Sequence record: PQ863256.1
DNA: 64,000 nucleotides
Reading direction: 5' to 3' (one strand)
From: Escherichia phage Ptacy1479
The notes under the pieces were generated by a model. The model worked only from the letters and a program-made list of their open reading frames with translations. It ran no database searches and was not told the origin of the DNA. Below are positions 243 through 64,000 of this stretch, one piece after another. Position numbers and translations under genes: made by a program. Positions within the stretch are counted from its first letter, which is position 1. Each line of letters begins with the position of its first letter.

Positions 243-271
243 TTTAAAGGGACCATGAAAGGAGGTTAGAA

Positions 272-763
272 ATGGATAACGTCGCATTGCCACCTGTACA
301 ATTAAACTTAAGCCCAGCTGGAATGGAATTCATCATGAAGCATGAGGGTATGAGAACCAAGGCTTATAAAGATTCCGCAGGTATCTGGACGATATGTGTA
401 GGGGCTACGCGCGATATGAATGGTTATCCGGTTAGGCAAGGATTAACATATTCTATAGAGGATTGTCTAGCTCTGCTAGATAGAGACACACAAGACTCTG
501 TTCGTGCTACTCAGAAAAACATAAGGGTTCCTTTGCTAGTTCATGAATTTGATGCACTCACATCCTTCAATTTCAATGTTGGGGGCGGTGCACTAAGCAC
601 ATCTAAGCTGAGGAAAGTTATCAATGGAGAAGTTAAGGGTGACATATACTCAGAGTTTCTTCGTTGGGATAAAATTACGGTGAAAGGAAAGAAGCAGAGA
701 AGTCAGGGTCTTCATAACAGAAGGGTTGCGGAAGCTGATCTTTATACCGAAGGTAAATATTAA
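272..763 (+). CDS. endolysin, phage lysozyme (GH24, lambda R / P22 gp19 / T4 e type)
   Basis: Motif HEGMRTKAYKDSAGIWTICVG matches the lysozyme catalytic region (E...D...T); FNFNVGGGAL and RRVAEADLY segments; strong RBS GAAAGGAGG. Confidence 0.85.
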   Translation: MDNVALPPVQLNLSPAGMEFIMKHEGMRTKAYKDSAGIWTICVGATRDMNGYPVRQGLTYSIEDCLALLDRDTQDSVRATQKNIRVPLLVHEFDALTSFNFNVGGGALSTSKLRKVINGEVKGDIYSEFLRWDKITVKGKKQRSQGLHNRRVAEADLYTEGKY

Positions 764-21813: not shown

Positions 21814-22305
21814 TTTTACTCCTATTAATTATGACCAAGATTTAGCTTTTACTTCGACGTATGTTTTAACTTCACCTTTCAAGACTTCCTGAGAAGTCTT
21901 TGCACTTTCCTCAGAGTGATGTACAACGGTGATCTCTTTCTTTCCAATCTTATAAGTGTGAATCCAAATCATACTTCTTCCTTATATTCCCAATTTCTTT
22001 CATAATACCCAGAGTTGTAGTTTAGGGCGCACTTCTCGGCCTCTTCTATGTCGTCAGTGTTTAGGATATTTACCCATCCTCCAACTTCATCAAAACCTTC
22101 TTCTACTTCGTTAAACCATACGCTATACTTTTTCATCGAGAAGTTCTTCCCCAATCTTTTACATAGCATCGCCCGTTAACCCACTTTGTCTCTGACTTAA
22201 ACTCTTGAGACAATCTCACTTCACAGTCTTCTCTACTGGCATCTCCTCCGATATCAATCAGATATAGGAATAGGGCTATACCTAAAGACCAAAGAATTAT
22301 CTTCT

Positions 22306-22698
22306 TCATCGAATCACCAAAGGCTCTTCAGAGTACACAGGAGCGGCTATTTCTACAGGAGGTGCTGCCCTAAGGTCATTAAGTCTTACGCCCTTCAGCA
22401 TACCGTCTAGGTGGTCCTTTTTGGGGATTCCAACAGGGAAGTCGTCAATCCAGATATCTACAAAGAAACCTAGCTGCCGACATACCTCATCCTTCTGGAC
22501 ACCATTGCAAAAGATGATAGGAATTTGCAAACACTCTGCATCAATCTTAATATCGTGATTATCATACCCATTAGGTTCTGCAAAGCGATAAGTTACAAAA
22601 CGTACATCATAGCCTTTTTCTTGCATTAAAGCCACCACAGAGCGCCACAGCTTTTTATCTGAGGTGTAAGTGTCATCGTAATCTAAACCAATATTCAT
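22306..22698 (-). CDS. HAD-like phosphatase (tentative)
   Basis: N-terminal MNIGLDYDDT resembles HAD motif I (DxDxT); WIDDF resembles motif IV. Confidence 0.3.
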   Translation of the reverse strand: MNIGLDYDDTYTSDKKLWRSVVALMQEKGYDVRFVTYRFAEPNGYDNHDIKIDAECLQIPIIFCNGVQKDEVCRQLGFFVDIWIDDFPVGIPKKDHLDGMLKGVRLNDLRAAPPVEIAAPVYSEEPLVIR

Positions 22699-49206: not shown

Positions 49207-49518
49207 CTATTTGAGTTTCAGGCTAATATTAAGGTGCATACATGCCCTGTTCTGTACAGCAGCATAGCTTCTGCCGAGCATGTCAGCCATTCTCTGAATA
49301 GACATAAACCCGGCATTACGGATAAGGAACTGGTCTTCTTCTTTAGACCACTTAACTCGGATTACAGCTCTAGAGATACCAAACTTAGTGCAAGCTGTAT
49401 TAACTGCATTCTCCGTTACATTCATAATCTGAGCAACCTCTTGAACAGAGTACTCTTTGATTAGTCTCCGAAGATTTTCAATCTGTATCGGAGTCCATAT
49501 AGTTCTTCGAGCTTTCAT
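49207..49518 (-). CDS. putative DNA-binding protein with two tandem HTH-like repeats
   Basis: Two about 40 aa repeats (WTPIQIENLRRLIKEYSVQEVAQIMNVTENAV / WSKEEDQFLIRNAGFMSIQRMADMLGRSYAAV) resembling sigma region-4 or Myb-like HTH. Confidence 0.35.
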   Translation of the reverse strand: MKARRTIWTPIQIENLRRLIKEYSVQEVAQIMNVTENAVNTACTKFGISRAVIRVKWSKEEDQFLIRNAGFMSIQRMADMLGRSYAAVQNRACMHLNISLKLK

Positions 49519-51505: not shown

Positions 51506-51580
51506 TGGCGTTCCCTCGTGGAATCGAACCACGAATAAGAGCTTAGAAGGCTCCAGTTATATCCGTTTAACTAAGGGAAC
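51506..51580 (-). tRNA. tRNA-Arg(UCU): tRNA-Arg (anticodon UCU)
   Basis: Manual fold: acceptor GTTCCCT/AGGGAAC, D-stem GTTA/TAAC, anticodon stem GGAGC/GCTCT with loop CTTCTAA, T-arm CGTGG-TTCGATT-CCACG, discriminator G, encoded CCA; 75 nt. Confidence 0.8.
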
Positions 51581-53856: not shown

Positions 53857-54168
53857 TTACTTAACTGATTCAATCATTTTACGAACGTTAGCCACACCTT
53901 TCTGAATCAAAGGCAGGAACTCATCACCCAAACTAGAAGATAGAAGACTCAAACTCCCCGTCTTAATGCCACGACATGCTGACTCTACTTCTTCCGGCAA
54001 CAATGTCATATTAAACCACGGAGATTTAATCTCTACTGTAAATCCGGGGTTATATCGGCTCTCGCTATGATTAAACTCCAGATAGGTAACACCGGAGCAG
54101 TGTTTCATTTGAGCACGAATTGTTACAGCGGGCTTACATATCACAAAAGAAGAAACAGACATAATCAC
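53857..54168 (-). CDS. hypothetical protein
   Basis: 103 aa ORF. Confidence 0.3.
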   Translation of the reverse strand: MIMSVSSFVICKPAVTIRAQMKHCSGVTYLEFNHSESRYNPGFTVEIKSPWFNMTLLPEEVESACRGIKTGSLSLLSSSLGDEFLPLIQKGVANVRKMIESVK

Positions 54169-58800: not shown

Positions 58801-59623
58801 GATATTCACCTTTCAATTGTAAGGGCGCTATTGCCCCGCTCTCTATGAGCTTGCTTAAGTCACTATTAACTTAACTCTAACCACTCACTATTAAGTAGTT
58901 ATAGGTAAGTGGGGCGGTCTTATCAGGAGTTAACCTTGCCGCCCCCTTATCCGTGATGTTTCATCTGGTATCTTTAATTAGTCGCTATAAACGAAGCCGA
59001 CCTGATAGCGATGATCAATCATCACAATAAGGCTATGCGTCCGACTCTAATTAGTTACGTTTATTGTAACCGTCGGCAATATCGTCTACTTTGTTTTCGC
59101 TCCCGCCTATCCTTTGTGCCAACTCCTAACCGCTAACCATCGCCCACTACGGGAGGTTATTGCGGAAAGGTCATTGACCGCCTAGTATTCCGGCGTTTTA
59201 TATCTTTCAGCAGGTTTACTACATAACCCGACTATGTACATTCCGATACTCTGGACTCTCAAGCCGTTCACATCGTAAACGTTCGCATTAAACCTTATTG
59301 TTAAATAGCAATTTGCCACTTTTTAACCACTCCCCGCCGCTCTCAATTGAGCGTTATTTCTTCGGGCTTGCCTACCCTGATTAACTTCTTTCACTGTAGC
59401 GCCTTGTTAGCGATGACCGCCGCTACCCTTAACCGTGGGCGATTAGCTTAAGTCTTTGCGTGCACTCAATGAATCCGTTTATCAGTGGTGACGTTTCCAG
59501 TAAGGGATTGTAAGGCTGTTTTCTCTGATAGTTTAGAGAGTCTTACACCGTTTTATCTGGTATGTTATCCGATGGTTATTATCATCTAACATATTCAACC
59601 GATATAGGAGAATGTTTAAATTA

Positions 59624-59634
59624 TTAAAGAGCGG
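59624..59634 (+). repeat. TTAAAGAGCGG repeat copy 1
   Basis: Exact 11-mer shared with the copies at 59859 and 60171. Confidence 0.5.
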
Positions 59635-59858
59635 TAAATCTATCAGCGTGCTTTCTCACGCTATGCAACTGTTAGCCGTTGTTGCGCTTTTCACTGAAGC
59701 GGTGATTTGCTTAGTGAGTGCTCATTATGAATCATGTTGTTTTCGCTGTCAACCACTTTTTTAATCTTTTTTCGTCGTTCCCGCTATTGGGAGGATATAT
59801 CAATCAGCTTTATTTGATTGAGGATTAAGCGGTGAGGCTTAACTTATGATTCATATTG

Positions 59859-59869
59859 TTAAAGAGCGG
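59859..59869 (+). repeat. TTAAAGAGCGG repeat copy 2
   Basis: Exact 11-mer. Confidence 0.5.
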
Positions 59870-60170
59870 TTACTACATTCACAGCTTAACACATCGTGTT
59901 AGCTTGTCAAACTCTTTTTATCATCTTCTTTTATTCCGTTCCCTTATCTCGCGTGAATCTTTGCGAAAGGGCAAGATGATAAGTCTGATTTATCTCTCAG
60001 GAATCTAGTGCGCTTTCAAGCGTTGACCATTTGAAAGTATCGAACAAATGAGGCTTATTTTGTTGCTCATCATCCGCCTGTTTCACGTATGAATCAGGAA
60101 TCAATTCTAGCGGTCAACTAAGCGCCTTATAGTAATGACATTAACGCCACCTGTAAGACAAATCATGTTT

Positions 60171-60181
60171 TTAAAGAGCGG
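60171..60181 (+). repeat. TTAAAGAGCGG repeat copy 3
   Basis: Exact 11-mer preceded by T-run. Confidence 0.5.
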
Positions 60182-60278
60182 GATTTTTCAAGTCATCGCT
60201 GACTTTGCTCATTATGTATCAGGCTTTTTTCGGTGTCAATACTCTTTTTAAGAATATTTTCACTTTCTAGCCTGATTT

Positions 60279-60288
60279 TTAAAGAGCG
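60279..60288 (+). repeat. TTAAAGAGCG repeat copy 4
   Basis: 10-mer core preceded by T-run. Confidence 0.5.
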
Positions 60289-60745
60289 TAGCACTTTCAT
60301 TGTGCGTCTTACTGTCGGTATTCCTACCGCTCCCCGTTGAAGCCTTTTACCGTGATGCTAATCACCTATCGAGGAGTTTTTACTTCTTGTTGCTTACTGC
60401 TTACTACGGGATTCATATTAATATATAGGAAAATCTTGTCAATACCCTTTTTTCAAATTATTTTATATCTTACTGTTTTATAAAGGAATTTATTTTAGGG
60501 AGGATAGGAACTACAAAGAAATCAGGGGATAGAGGAACGGGCGCGCGTGATACATCATAAGAAACGGCTTGTAAAGCAATAATAAGCGGCCTATAACGCA
60601 TCACAACGAGCTAAAGGGGAGTAAGGCATACAATCACCCTATAAAATAGAAAAGCCTCGCATAGAGGCTTATAGGAAGGATTAGAGAATCAGATAGATTA
60701 TGACCATAGGCATGACTACGGCACAATAAAGAAGAAAGAGTAAGC

Positions 60746-61111
60746 CTAAGGATTTACACATTGACCGTTACCGGATTCTACTTCGTTCATGGACTCATCA
60801 AAGAGTGTCAACGATGAGCGCATCAAGTGATCCACCGTGATTTGTTTACCAGTGGATTCATTTACCAACTGTATAGTTTTATCGTATGATTGCACATAAT
60901 CGAAATCATTTACATGCAAAATAATAACCTTAGGTGACTTTTTACCAGTCGAATAGTTTTCTATCAAATAGGTACACTGTAAACCTTCCACCGTAGCAGG
61001 GGAGAATGTTGCAGCTTTAACGCTACCCATAGCCGATAGCAGGACACCTAACAGAAGAATGACCAGAAAGAAGCCTACAACCGTTTTAACGACGAATTTA
61101 ATAAACCACAT
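60746..61111 (-). CDS. membrane-anchored (signal-anchor) protein
   Basis: N-terminal TM VVGFFLVILLLGVLLSAMG then soluble domain. Confidence 0.4.
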   Translation of the reverse strand: MWFIKFVVKTVVGFFLVILLLGVLLSAMGSVKAATFSPATVEGLQCTYLIENYSTGKKSPKVIILHVNDFDYVQSYDKTIQLVNESTGKQITVDHLMRSSLTLFDESMNEVESGNGQCVNP

Positions 61112-61215
61112 AGCAATAAACCTTTTTAATTAAAGAATGTAAGAATAAAGCATATCAGCGACGAATAACGCCACTGTAACAACGAACAAGCAACGCCAAA
61201 AATAATCATGAATCA

Positions 61216-61506
61216 TTAGTTGCCCTTACCTTTAAATAGTGCTACCCTAAGCAGTTCAACTTCTTCCAGCGATAAGAGAATCCGACGTTGCGCCAAATAC
61301 TGACCAGCTAGGATGGTATCCATGATTAAAGCAACAGCGGGAAAACTCACCGTTTTAATATTATCGCCGACAATAAACAAGATTAAGCACTTGTCGGAAT
61401 CGTCAGTATATGAGAAATCGATCTCACCATAATTATGAGTCGGTATAGTAAAGCTATGCTCTTTAGCCATTAGACCAATCCTTATTGTATTTAAGCATAG
61501 ACACAC
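61216..61506 (-). CDS. hypothetical protein
   Basis: 96 aa ORF. Confidence 0.3.
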   Translation of the reverse strand: MCLCLNTIRIGLMAKEHSFTIPTHNYGEIDFSYTDDSDKCLILFIVGDNIKTVSFPAVALIMDTILAGQYLAQRRILLSLEEVELLRVALFKGKGN

Positions 61507-61687
61507 ACTCAGGGCCGGACAAAGTGCCGCCTAAGTAAGTAACCGTCATTCGTGCGCTAAACTCTGAAAGATTGCACAATACGGCAAGGGGTACGCGACT
61601 TTCACCGTGACTACTTGCAACTAACACAACATTATCAAAGATGGTTACGCTATCATTAACAAGGATGTTATTCCCCATTGGTATCAT
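61463..61687 (-). CDS. hypothetical protein
   Basis: 74 aa ORF. Confidence 0.3.
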   Translation of the reverse strand: MIPMGNNILVNDSVTIFDNVVLVASSHGESRVPLAVLCNLSEFSARMTVTYLGGTLSGPECVSMLKYNKDWSNG

Positions 61688-61934
61688 CCTTAATTAGTCC
61701 ATGATTGAGCAGGTTAGCCAGTGATAATCCACCGTCAAAATAAACAGAACGAAAATCTGCGCGGGTAATTTCAAGGCCAGCAAACTTTAACCAGTTTTTA
61801 GCCGATTGAAAATCCATTTTGCAAAAAGTAATGATAGGAACAGTAAGCTGACCATCAAGCGTATTAAACATGATAGCGGTATCGCCAATAAAACAAGAAA
61901 AGCCACTAGATAATCTAATTTCTTTAATAGCCAT
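61668..61934 (-). CDS. hypothetical protein
   Basis: 88 aa ORF. Confidence 0.3.
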   Translation of the reverse strand: MAIKEIRLSSGFSCFIGDTAIMFNTLDGQLTVPIITFCKMDFQSAKNWLKFAGLEITRADFRSVYFDGGLSLANLLNHGLIKDDTNGE

Positions 61935-61970
61935 TATTTATACTCCCAAAAGATTGGCAAATTAATTTAT

Positions 61971-62843
61971 TCACTTACTAGCCTTAATACAGTTGGCTAA
62001 ATTAACGTGAACGGTATAAACAGCATTATCAGCGTTATTATAAACAGTTGTGGCGATCATCGACTCATTGACCGGACCGTAACTCACTAGATTCGTTACA
62101 GCTTTAACGTCTTCATAACGTTGTACAGTGCCAAATGTCACCATATCCGCATCGTTATCGGTACGCTTAAGCACCAAATCATTGTTAGGCTGACCGTCTA
62201 ACGTTTTAGATTGAAAGAGAACGCCATCATTAGTAACGTTGCTAAATTTCATCTTTAGCACGATGGAAGTGTCATCACTATCAGCACCGTTACAAATCAT
62301 CCAACCTTTATTGATGGAACTAGAGAAGACACTAGCCGCATCAGTTGCAGGAGCAGGACTAGCAACAGCCTTATCAGAAAGAGATGTGACCAGTGCACTA
62401 ACACCGATGGCTGCAACCAGTGCATAACTAGCCAGATTGACAGACTTCATTATCTTACTTGCAACAGTAGGCTTGATTGGCTGTTTCTTAGTTTTCTTGT
62501 TCCATGCTTCAACCATGACAGACAAGCGGGATAATTCAGCTTTCACATCGCGGCACGACTCGGGCCAATCCTTCTGATTCCAGCTATCTAAATTTGCCTG
62601 AATGTAACAATTGATAGCGTCCTGCATATCGGTAAAGCCATTCTCTTTGAACGTGCTTTCATCTTCACACTGTAAAGCGTTCGCAGTAGAGTTAATGATC
62701 AAGCAAGCCAACATAACGGAATTTTTGAATCCTTTACGTGCGCTTTCGTTTTCCATCCACGCAATAGGACTACCAACAGTTAAGCCCAAAGAGGAAAGAC
62801 TTTCGTTTGCTTTGTTCAAGTGGTTAATCGCTACTTTTGACAT
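61971..62843 (-). CDS. bitopic membrane protein, first gene of the - strand block
   Basis: 290 aa with central TM LASYALVAAIGVSALVTSL. Confidence 0.4.
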   Translation of the reverse strand: MSKVAINHLNKANESLSSLGLTVGSPIAWMENESARKGFKNSVMLACLIINSTANALQCEDESTFKENGFTDMQDAINCYIQANLDSWNQKDWPESCRDVKAELSRLSVMVEAWNKKTKKQPIKPTVASKIMKSVNLASYALVAAIGVSALVTSLSDKAVASPAPATDAASVFSSSINKGWMICNGADSDDTSIVLKMKFSNVTNDGVLFQSKTLDGQPNNDLVLKRTDNDADMVTFGTVQRYEDVKAVTNLVSYGPVNESMIATTVYNNADNAVYTVHVNLANCIKASK

Positions 62844-63626
62844 TTTGTTAATCCTTTTGGTTGATGAAAAACTACAAACTACACTCGCAACTATATATTA
62901 AAGGAAAAAGCTGTCAACCATTTATTTTCTAACTTTCTTGCATCTTACTGAAAACTAAAGGAATTTAATTTACTAAACTTCCCATACTCAGAGAATCAGC
63001 TTACTGACTATTGTTACTTTATAACACTAATCCTACGGGTAGCAGACCAACATACCAGGGCAAACGGGGATACAACAACCGCAGAACAGACCACGGGGAA
63101 ACATGCCAGATAGTGCGGTAATAATATACCACTTAAATAATTAGTTAACTATTAATGACTCAAACATCAAATACCCTTCGCTTACGCTCAGGTACGCTGA
63201 AAAAGAAAGTAATAAAAGAAACAATAAACATCAAACATAATCTTTCCACTTGATTAATACATATATCATTATTGCACTCATAATCATTACTATTGAAACT
63301 ATTTACAATCAAACTATGGGGGAAGTGGGCTATTACTTATGGGTATTATTAGACCTGTTATTATCACGCCTTAACAGAGTCTAGCCTTTCTCTCACTCTT
63401 TAAAGGGGTACTAAATAAACGGGTAGCTAATGAATAGGATGTTATACACGGGGAAAGAATAACGGGGAGTAGGCACGGGGAAAGGTGGAACGTTGAAAGG
63501 GAAGGTAAAGGCATTGCCAATAACCCTTTTTTAAATGAGGACTCCCCCTTTTTAGGAAACACGCGGGAAGCGGCTAGCCCCACTCGGTCAAATCAGAATT
63601 TTAAACTGTTATATATAAGGTTGAAT
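62844..63626. other. divergent intergenic region with G-rich ACGGGGA iteron-like repeats
   Basis: About 0.8 kb without ORFs, between - strand gene 61971..62843 and + strand genes from 63627; ACGGGGA at 63064, 63093, 63448, 63462, 63475. Confidence 0.5.
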
Positions 63627-63773
63627 ATGAATCTCGATACTAAAGAGTTTATTAAAATTGCAATAGAAGATAATCTAAAGAAGCTCGGTGATATTTCTTT
63701 ATCAGATAGAGAACGAGTGGAAGCAGCTAACATGCTAGTGTTACTAACTAAAGCATTACGGGAGTTGGAATGA
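63627..63773 (+). CDS. small hypothetical protein
   Basis: 48 aa ORF with AAGG RBS. Confidence 0.3.
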   Translation: MNLDTKEFIKIAIEDNLKKLGDISLSDRERVEAANMLVLLTKALRELE

Positions 63774-63931
63774 ATCTAATTAAAGTATTTAGACGGATGA
63801 AATGTAAACATGATTACTATCTTCTTCGTAAAGCTTACGGGGATGAAAGAATACACGGTCTTTACCTGTCAACATGGAAGTGTAAGGAATGTGGTAAGCT
63901 ACGGTTTAGTGAATGGATGGACAGGCCATAA
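63770..63931 (+). CDS. small zinc-ribbon-like protein
   Basis: 53 aa ORF with CKHD...CKECG; ATGA overlap with upstream gene. Confidence 0.3.
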   Translation: MNLIKVFRRMKCKHDYYLLRKAYGDERIHGLYLSTWKCKECGKLRFSEWMDRP

Positions 63932-64000
63932 TGGAATGGATATTCTGGTTAGTAATAATCTTCTCCTTATTCATCTGCTTCTCTATAGCAAGATGTATCA
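63931..64000 (+). CDS. small hydrophobic protein (3' truncated by window end)
   Basis: Starts MEWIFWLVIIFSLFICFSIARCI; TAATG overlap with previous gene. Confidence 0.25.
   Translation, partial: MEWIFWLVIIFSLFICFSIARCI

Follow-up and report, generated by a model that had tools for sequence, protein, structure and literature searches.

Only for phage T7 is there an outline understanding of how short exact terminal repeats are recognized, cut and duplicated. The phiEco32-like podoviruses also carry a direct terminal repeat (DTR) at the two ends of a linear genome. This DTR has been demonstrated experimentally in phiEco32, by primer walking and restriction mapping; in SU10, by a sharp drop-off of sequencing reads, with blunt ends; in Paul, by PhageTerm; and in YF01, by full-length nanopore reads (PMC4281155, PMC9965538). 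Here, we analyzed a stretch of 64,000 nucleotides from Escherichia phage Ptacy1479 (PQ863256.1), referred to below as the window, with a focus on the 0.8-kb gap (62844..63626) that separates a set of leftward genes from a set of rightward genes. A preliminary description of this gap had listed five ACGGGGA heptamers and proposed a divergent promoter region and/or a replication origin with protein-binding iterons. The gap turns out to be the place where a linear phiEco32-like (Kuravirus) genome has its right and left physical ends fused, and the heptamers are part of two conserved modules for which we propose, tentatively, a role in the maturation or packaging of phage DNA.

The gap joins the two ends of a linear genome

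A megablast search with the gap and flanking DNA gave matches to 96 phage records, all of phiEco32-like podoviruses (Gordonclarkvirinae: Kuravirus and Suseptimavirus), and the matches stop at the physical record ends of phiEco32, SU10 and YF01. The first 193 bp of the phiEco32 and YF01 records are exactly the same as the last 193 bp (in 4E8, the repeat is 206 bp long). This terminal repeat aligns to positions 63383..63575 of the window, inside 94%-identity matches between the window and the two left genome ends, and the DTR alone is matched by 95 phage records at 80–97% identity. On the left of this interval, the window contains DNA unique to the right genome end and, on the right of it, DNA unique to the left genome end. 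The gene order fits a DTR as well, with the homolog of phi32_128 on the left and the homolog of gene 1 on the right; in the relatives, the genes for terminase's small subunit (TerS) and large subunit (TerL) are located 1.5–2 kb beyond the gene-1 homolog.

Because the exact DTR of the relatives maps between the two end-unique DNAs, what had been described as a divergent intergenic region is a genome-end junction. Its arrangement is that of replicative concatemers and of circularized assemblies, with a single collapsed copy of the DTR; about 77 kb separate the two 'divergent' gene sets in the virion. From left to right, the junction consists of a leftward early promoter, about 465 bp of conserved non-coding right-end DNA, the DTR, and a conserved left-end leader (Table 1).

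Among the relatives, sequence conservation sets in abruptly at the left boundary of the DTR, and the records of SU7, NC-B, HC-25922 and UKE3, which belong to a sister clade described below, begin exactly at the homologous base. The hexamer CT|AGCC (the bar marks the edge of the repeat) straddles both boundaries. It occurs 18 times in the window and so is not rare; that two independently mapped boundaries share it in one register is unlikely to be due to chance (about 4^-6). The hexamer is kept across all relatives examined with small variants, including CT|AGGC in phiEco32, CC|AGCC in 172-1, and CT|GGCC in MN03, 4E8 and ECBP2 (left boundary), and it is a candidate nicking or cutting motif for the formation of the termini.

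The block in the 3' part of the DTR (Table 1), kept in both clades, is a candidate terminase recognition element. A conserved region at approximately positions 130–170 of the DTR is described in the YF01 paper, and the CCCTTTTTTA repeat, along with variation in T-run length, in the SU10 paper.

ACGGGGA heptamers are organized in two parallel modules

All five previously listed ACGGGGA copies were confirmed, at 63064, 63093, 63448, 63462 and 63475 on the + strand, with the last three clustered in a span of 34 bp. The first two are located in right-end unique DNA and the other three inside the DTR. The window contains eight copies on both strands, versus 2.77 expected from dinucleotide-preserving shuffles, and six of the eight fall within 63064..63843, all on the + strand; the sixth, at 63837, was absent from the preliminary description. 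For the five copies in the 783-bp gap, the Poisson P value is 8e-11 relative to the rest of the window and 4e-9 relative to base composition. Of the 10 ACGGGGA copies in the complete genome of phiEco32, 9 are terminal.

The only two copies of the window outside the junction (60331..60337 and 53955..53961) are both on the - strand, and both read ACGGGGAG, like the middle copy in the DTR. The copy at 60331 sits between two early promoters; it is kept in phiEco32, and the region is unalignable in the other clades.

A degenerate form of the heptamer, A[CT]GGG[GT]A (A-Y-G-G-G-K-A), adds conserved copies at 63035 and 63419 and thereby yields two parallel modules, M1 and M2, of which M1 lies about 290–350 bp to the left of the DTR. 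A repeat finder pairs M1 with M2 in register, at an offset of 384 bp (families D1, D2 and D4), and the likeness between them extends past the heptamer (ACTAATCCTACGGGTAGC versus ACTAAATAAACGGGTAGC). M1 and M2 are paralogous modules in the same orientation. Another match to the degenerate core, ATGGGTA at 63339, is conserved no better than its flanks and was treated as a chance occurrence.

The AT-rich context ascribed to the repeats holds only to a moderate degree (63.5% A+T in the gap versus 58% in the whole window). The three-copy cluster is itself part of a purine-rich maximum. The segment 63436..63510 is the most purine-rich 75-nt stretch of the + strand in the entire 64-kb window (0.79, compared with a mean of 0.49 and a standard deviation of 0.07; z ~4.3). 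It is followed directly by a pyrimidine-rich block (CCCTTTTTT...CTCCCCCTTTTT).

Modules are conserved in two heptamer flavors

Nine typed phiEco32-group relatives and one metagenomic contig have essentially invariant M2 heptamers (conservation 0.95–1.0). The same relatives have M1 heptamers at homologous positions and a post-DTR copy inside the gene-1 homolog, with Bas93 being partly degenerate; the downstream heptamer is found in the same gene in ECBP2 and L034. Within M1, the heptamers at 63035 and 63064 form conserved islands (0.81 and 0.91, respectively) within diverged flanks (0.42–0.5).

The sister clade (MLP3, Bas86 and TH34; 20 records) contains no ACGGGGA at all and has the same layout with ATGGGTA. 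The upstream array of this clade has a spacing of 28–30 bp, its 249-bp DTR contains ACGGGTA at +36 and ATGGGTA at +65, +93 and +108, and one copy is located downstream of the DTR, all on the + strand. The repeats are therefore kept in related phages, as heptamers within the phiEco32 group and as a layout in the ATGGGTA clade; a lack of such conservation is one of the things that the preliminary description had named as speaking against its reading of the gap.

Some genomes mix the heptamer types, hereafter flavors. ECBP2 combines an ACGGGG-type M1, an ATGGGTA-type M2, an ACGGGGA downstream copy and a phiEco32-type gene 1; it encodes phiEco32-type gp121–123 and lacks gp99. IME267 has full ACGGGGA modules, also lacks gp99, and carries the other clade's gp122, gp123, gp121, gp116 and gp69. 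These two phages are natural recombinants between the two clades, useful for association analysis. The DTR array of 4E8 is itself mixed (ACGGGGT, ATGGGTA, ACGGGGC, ACGGGAT, ACGGGGG and ACGGGGA). Given the ECBP2 hybrid and the mixed 4E8 array, the invariant core is A-Y-G-G-G, and mixed flavors are viable.

This pattern bears on two explanations that require no dedicated reader of the heptamers. The first is that the copies clustered by chance or were conserved passively along with the whole DTR. Three of the five copies are indeed in the DTR, whose overall conservation exceeds 90%, and the sixth, being part of a coding sequence (Table 1), could be kept by protein constraint. However, the clustering (P ~1e-9), the location of all the copies on one strand, the terminal position of nearly all copies in phiEco32, the islands formed by M1 heptamers in diverged flanks, and the recurrence of the layout with a different heptamer in the other clade make this explanation barely credible.

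The second explanation, which we consider improbable, is that the G-tracts of the purine-rich strand form an R-loop, a triplex or another structure, or are bound by a virion or host protein that protects the ends after ejection. The coincidence of M2 with the purine maximum of the window, the invariance of the GGG tract in all flavors and the tolerance of mixed flavors would be consistent with such a role. Conversely, no canonical G-quadruplex motif (with loops of up to 12 nt) was found, M1 is not notably purine-rich, and the conservation of the flanking A and Y/K positions, together with the homogeneity of the two big clades, is more specific than a G-tract would need.

Search for a protein that reads the heptamers

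The heptamers, real and conserved, very probably bind a protein, as had been suggested. In a proteome-wide co-variation screen, we compared the open reading frames (ORFs) of phiEco32 with the window and 4E8 against MLP3 and Bas86. Heptamer flavor was found to track a linked block of small early right-arm genes, in which gp99 is the only recognizable DNA binder. The best sequence matches of gp99 in the PDB are tandem Myb domains, those of CEF1 and c-Myb (E 6e-4 and 1.6e-3); its predicted model contains two three-helix bundles, and the top matches in a fold search are Myb-like, none of them significant. The protein is present in about 75 records, with an almost invariant second repeat, and the gene is missing from Suseptimavirus-type genomes. 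This distribution seemed complementary to that of the 20 ATGGGTA-type records. As an obligate partner of the heptamers, gp99 was nevertheless ruled out by IME267 (ACGGGGA in M1 and in the DTR) and ECBP2 (ACG-type M1), neither of which has it.

Other candidates fared no better. The Cys/His-rich gp122, as well as gp123, gp121, gp116 and gp69, failed as partners in the recombinants IME267 and ECBP2. The gp127 family is the sole protein that tracks M1 flavor in 7 of 7 genomes, but this is uninformative because gp127 lies within 1.2 kb of M1. In a reverse screen, no recognizable DNA binder specific to the ATGGGTA clade was found. One protein specific to this clade, Bas86_0087 (137 aa; Bas86 22178..22591), has a match to ProQ/FinO (PF04352, E 1e-5) that scores 25.9 bits, against a cut-off of 27.

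The putative TerS is 93–95% identical across the clades, and its N-termini are identical in MLP3 (ATGGGTA) and 4E8 (ACGGGG-type); TerL and the portal protein are, like TerS, nearly invariant between the clades. TerS was accordingly rejected as a flavor-specific reader, given that it does not co-vary with heptamer flavor, and was retained as a possible degenerate reader.

Promoters and a possible regulatory role of the heptamers

Of the divergent promoter region anticipated in the preliminary description, the leftward half was borne out. The sigma-70 promoter at 62917..62890 (Table 1) is nearly identical to the 'early promoter upstream of CDS125', the last gene of SU10, listed for that phage (S2 table). 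The SU10 paper, through whose account the experimental mapping is known to us, equates this CDS125 promoter with a phiEco32 promoter. In the related phage 7-11, early transcription starts from sigma-70 promoters at the extreme right end. A second leftward promoter-like site, 63148..63121 (TTAACT-16-TATTAT, 9/12 consensus), is located in the conserved block 63073..63150. The rightward half is only putative: no hexamer pair passed a consensus scan of the junction for a rightward promoter, and a putative rightward left-end promoter, spanning the right edge of the DTR, has been proposed by the SU10 authors. Its counterpart in the window would fall in the left-end leader (63580..63620), where 63583..63602 is almost invariant.

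With promoters on this map, the heptamers could be operators at which a phage early regulator, bound upstream or as a roadblock, tunes or shuts off the terminal early promoters. M1 follows closely downstream of the promoter-like site 63148..63121 and is 118–200 bp upstream of the 62917 promoter, M2 lies ~100–170 bp upstream of the putative left-end promoter, and the extra ACGGGGA at 60331 is found between early promoters. A regulator would be at hand in gp99, with its two repeats of the Myb-like fold, which reads ~6–7 bp, and its absence from the listed ATGGGTA-type records. We nonetheless regard regulation as quite unlikely: gp99 is absent from IME267 and ECBP2, which have an ACG-type M1, the ATGGGTA clade preserves the entire layout without gp99, the three strong early promoters in the 59–60.7 kb spacer have no comparable arrays, and the heptamer sites are clear of the core promoter.

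A terminal origin of replication as an unlikely alternative

The proposed replication origin with iterons gained no positive support and is, in our assessment, unlikely. The heptamers would here act as iterons or priming sites of a terminal origin: an initiator or primase-helicase would load at M1 and M2, the AT-rich DNA between the modules would melt, and synthesis of + sense would proceed rightward through the DTR, which could also duplicate the terminal repeat at concatemer junctions. Short repeats in the same orientation and with regular spacing do flank a stretch of 72–82% A+T (63120..63300), the strand of the array is extremely purine-rich, the modules are conserved, and all copies appear to be oriented such that synthesis primed there would cross the DTR. 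Against this, the junction contains no DnaA box, and neither the flanking ORFs nor the flavor-linked small genes encode a Rep-like or initiator domain. The conserved core is 7 bp long, spaced by 29/29 and 29/14/13 bp, with variable flanks within the modules, compared with 17–22 bp for iterons. Furthermore, an origin inside the DTR would be present twice per genome, and the primase-helicase, 93% identical between the clades, does not co-vary with flavor. GC skew is uninformative on the location of an origin because it follows gene orientation and transcription.

A possible role in DNA maturation or packaging

The function that we favor for the heptamer modules, short of calling it probable, is in DNA maturation or packaging. 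We hypothesize that a DNA-binding protein recognizes the heptamers as sub-sites and thereby marks the concatemer junction. The likeliest reader would be the conserved terminase (its small subunit, presumed to form a ring with multiple helix-turn-helix motifs) or an accessory factor. Through this reader, the terminal repeat would be located, cleaved at its CT|AGCC boundaries, and packaged with a fixed direction. A role of this kind has been proposed for the CCTAAAG arrays of T7 and is played by the multi-repeat cosB and pac sites of lambda and P1.

Packaging is favored because uniqueness in the genome and polarity are required of a terminase signal, and the heptamer sites have both. T7, moreover, shows an equivalent layout of its CCTAAAG copies. 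These sites flank and fill the interval between the two cut sites. As in multi-repeat terminase sites, repeated sub-sites are located next to the cuts, are nearly exclusive to the termini, and have a fixed orientation. The authors of the YF01 study report a similarity of TerS to the TerS of PaP3, a nonamer proposed to read repeated sub-sites.

Several observations weigh against this role. Co-variation tests yielded no heptamer-binding partner among the candidates, and the heptamer sequence shows no co-evolution with TerS, a feature expected of a multi-repeat terminase site. If flavor equals specificity, the reader is not the terminase, given that TerS, TerL and the portal are near-invariant while flavor varies. 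A sequence search with TerS among solved structures returned no homolog. As sites for recognition by terminase, the boundary motif and the near-invariant block in the 3' part of the DTR are no worse candidates, and the DTR boundaries themselves (63383 and 63575) are placed in the window by homology to the ends of relatives. Finally, we know of no proof of function even for the CCTAAAG arrays of T7.

The viability of the hybrid ECBP2 and of the mixed 4E8 array implies a reader that tolerates A-Y-G-G-G variants. On these sequences, a conserved protein with degenerate recognition, which could be TerS, fits at least as well as a flavor-specific partner. The homogeneity of flavor within genomes of the two large clades is unexplained under a degenerate reader and is another point on the negative side.

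Alternatively, the A-Y-G-G-G-K-A modules may form a modular, exchangeable 'terminal code' that is read by a factor other than terminase, although we give this a low probability. In one form, the modules would serve for polar loading or priming, and + sense synthesis starting there would proceed rightward across the DTR and supply its second copy at each concatemer junction; in another, they may be a polar barrier to replication or transcription at the junction. If true, the flavor clades and the hybrids ECBP2 and IME267 would amount to natural specificity-swap experiments, and the 'terminal code' would bear on the poorly defined regeneration of exact terminal repeats in T7-type phages.

Genes and other features around the junction

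The coordinates of the features discussed here are collected in Table 1.

Table 1 Features of the genome-end junction of Ptacy1479 and related loci (window coordinates)
Feature	Position	Strand	Remarks
gp99 homolog	49207..49518	-	103 aa; PHROG 323; two Myb/SANT-like three-helix repeats
phi32_128 homolog	61971..62843	-	290 aa; 96.2% identity to phiEco32 75944..76816; first gene of the right arm
Sigma-70 early promoter, leftward	62890..62917	-	TTGACA-16-TATAGT; 11/12 consensus
Module M1	63026..63103	+	ACGGGTA 63035, ACGGGGA 63064, ACGGGGA 63093; spacing 29, 29 bp; right-end unique DNA
Conserved block	63073..63150		Identity 0.87–1.0, highest outside the DTR; overlaps heptamer 63093
Conserved block	63253..63322		Non-coding; 0.95–1.0; partly kept even in the ATGGGTA clade
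Left DTR boundary, CT|AGCC	63381..63386	+	Mapped from the genome ends of phiEco32 and YF01
DTR	63383..63575	+	193 bp; present once, like in concatemer junctions and circularized assemblies
Module M2	63410..63485	+	ACGGGTA 63419, ACGGGGA 63448, 63462, 63475; spacing 29, 14, 13 bp; inside the DTR
3' DTR block	63503..63556	+	CCCTTTTTTA, 11 nt, CCCCTTTTTA; near-invariant in both heptamer clades
Right DTR boundary	63572..63579	+	Centre of the palindrome GGCT|AGCC
Left-end leader	63580..63620	+	Conservation 0.98–1.0 over 63583..63602
Small ORF	63627..63773	+	48 aa; absent here in phiEco32; insertion between the DTR and the gene-1 homolog
Cys/His-rich ORF	63770..63931	+	53 aa; homolog of phiEco32 ORF 253..417; PHROG 7696
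Downstream heptamer copy	63837..63843	+	ACGGGGA in codons for A-Y-G-D-E of the 53-aa ORF

The ORFs that flank the gap, 61971..62843 (-) and 63621/63627..63773 (+), are as previously described. The former is the gene that the terminal early promoter reaches first, and its product carries the annotation 'hypothetical protein' in phiEco32 and YF01; a Pfam search found no domain in it or in the product of 63627..63773. The alignment of the window with phiEco32 resumes only from 63800. In phiEco32, the frame conserved in the group is the Cys/His-rich ORF 253..417 rather than the annotated phi32_1 (296..496), so that the phi32_1 annotation is probably in the wrong frame. An Rfam scan of 59000..64000 identified no RNA gene in the gap, with two sub-threshold chance matches elsewhere; the only tRNA is at 51506..51580.

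Further to the left, approximately 1.7 kb between the homologs of phi32_124 and phi32_125 (59000..60745) contain no ORF longer than 50 aa, and Rfam finds nothing there. The counterpart of this gap measures 1.3–1.9 kb in phiEco32, MLP3, Bas86 and 4E8. In the window, it has three strong leftward sigma-70-like promoters (60442..60415, 60239..60211 and 59752..59724), in agreement with the 'three promoters in the spacer' described for SU10.

Three adjacent small ORFs at 61216..61934 (-), of 96, 74 and 88 aa, are homologs of phi32_126 and phi32_127. They look like paralogs, with a common C-terminal '...GLSL(E/A)..LL' motif recognized by eye, and have a counterpart in Bas86 (32561..32773). The labels 'polymerase' and 'DNA polymerase B region' attached to the gp127 family look unfounded because no Pfam match is found. 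Similarly, the phi32_125 homolog (60746..61111, -), labeled 'terminase' in several records, encodes 121 aa with an N-terminal hydrophobic segment; since it has no terminase domain, the label is probably a propagated mis-annotation. The YF01 authors had already doubted the label 'terminase small subunit' on an HNH-domain gene of MLP3 and 4E8.

Novelty and implications

Earlier publications cover the DTR, the conserved block in its 3' part, the CCCTTTTTTA repeat and the terminal promoter. The heptamer modules, their periodicity and polarity, the flavor clades, the hybrids and the common CT|AGCC boundary motif appear to be undescribed: a literature search, which did not extend to the primary phiEco32 papers (Savalia 2008, Pavlova 2012), found no paper linking ACGGGGA to these phages.

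Recognition of the junction has a direct use in annotation. About 95 phiEco32-like genomes are publicly available in arbitrary permutations, and the junction, with its CT|AGCC boundaries, allows them to be oriented correctly and prevents this region from being read as an ordinary regulatory region or an origin. For the engineering and therapeutic use of Kuravirus phages, the cis elements described here need to be kept when genomes are rebooted or rearranged. More broadly, the presence of heptamer arrays in and around the DTR in a second, unrelated group of podoviruses suggests a general solution, and the natural flavor variants and viable hybrids constitute a tractable system for studying the function of such arrays.

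Comparison with known systems

The likeness to T7 extends to the genome as a whole (a linear podovirus genome with a short exact DTR, replicated through concatemers) and to the arrays themselves: one heptamer, in a single orientation, occurs within the repeat and forms arrays in the flanking unique DNA on either side. The short-repeat arrays of T7 were reportedly called SRL and SRR in the description of the T7 sequence by Dunn and Studier. We computed the positions of the T7 heptamer, CCTAAAG, and found three copies in the 160-bp terminal repeat (17, 41 and 60), eight more at 175–332, and two to the left of the right terminal repeat (39671 and 39700). The two systems differ in the heptamer itself, in its spacing (13 bp in the left array of T7, compared with 29 and 14 bp here) and in the location of the main flanking array, which is on the left-end side in T7 and on the right-end side here. 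T7 also has its own RNA polymerase, whose pausing at the junction is linked to maturation, whereas phiEco32-type phages use the host RNA polymerase and a phage sigma factor. T7 and the phiEco32-type phages are not closely related.

In lambda and P1, oligomeric small terminases as a rule recognize multi-repeat sites. The R sites bound by gpNu1 in lambda cosB and the clusters of TGATCA/G hexamers on both sides of the cut in P1 pac are, like the heptamers, short, unique and polar sub-sites beside a cleavage position. The ends are produced differently, by cohesive or headful cuts in those phages and by two cuts that bound a DTR here. In addition, binding has been demonstrated in lambda and P1; the sites described here are known from sequence, and TerS does not co-vary with their flavor. 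The reading of repeated sub-sites has been discussed for the TerS proteins of PaP3 and lambda (PMC7672466).

Iteron origins, such as those of plasmids, the lambda type, and P4 with its ori and crr octamers, resemble the junction in having direct repeats of one orientation beside AT-rich DNA. They differ from it in that the junction has no linked initiator gene, no DnaA boxes, a core of just 7 bp, and a position in or beside a terminal repeat. The two separated modules recall P4 ori plus crr.

Within the phiEco32 group itself, the DTR, promoter and leader of the window are orthologous to those of the published ends of phiEco32, SU10 and YF01. The heptamer modules thereby take their place among the terminal short-repeat arrays of DTR podoviruses.

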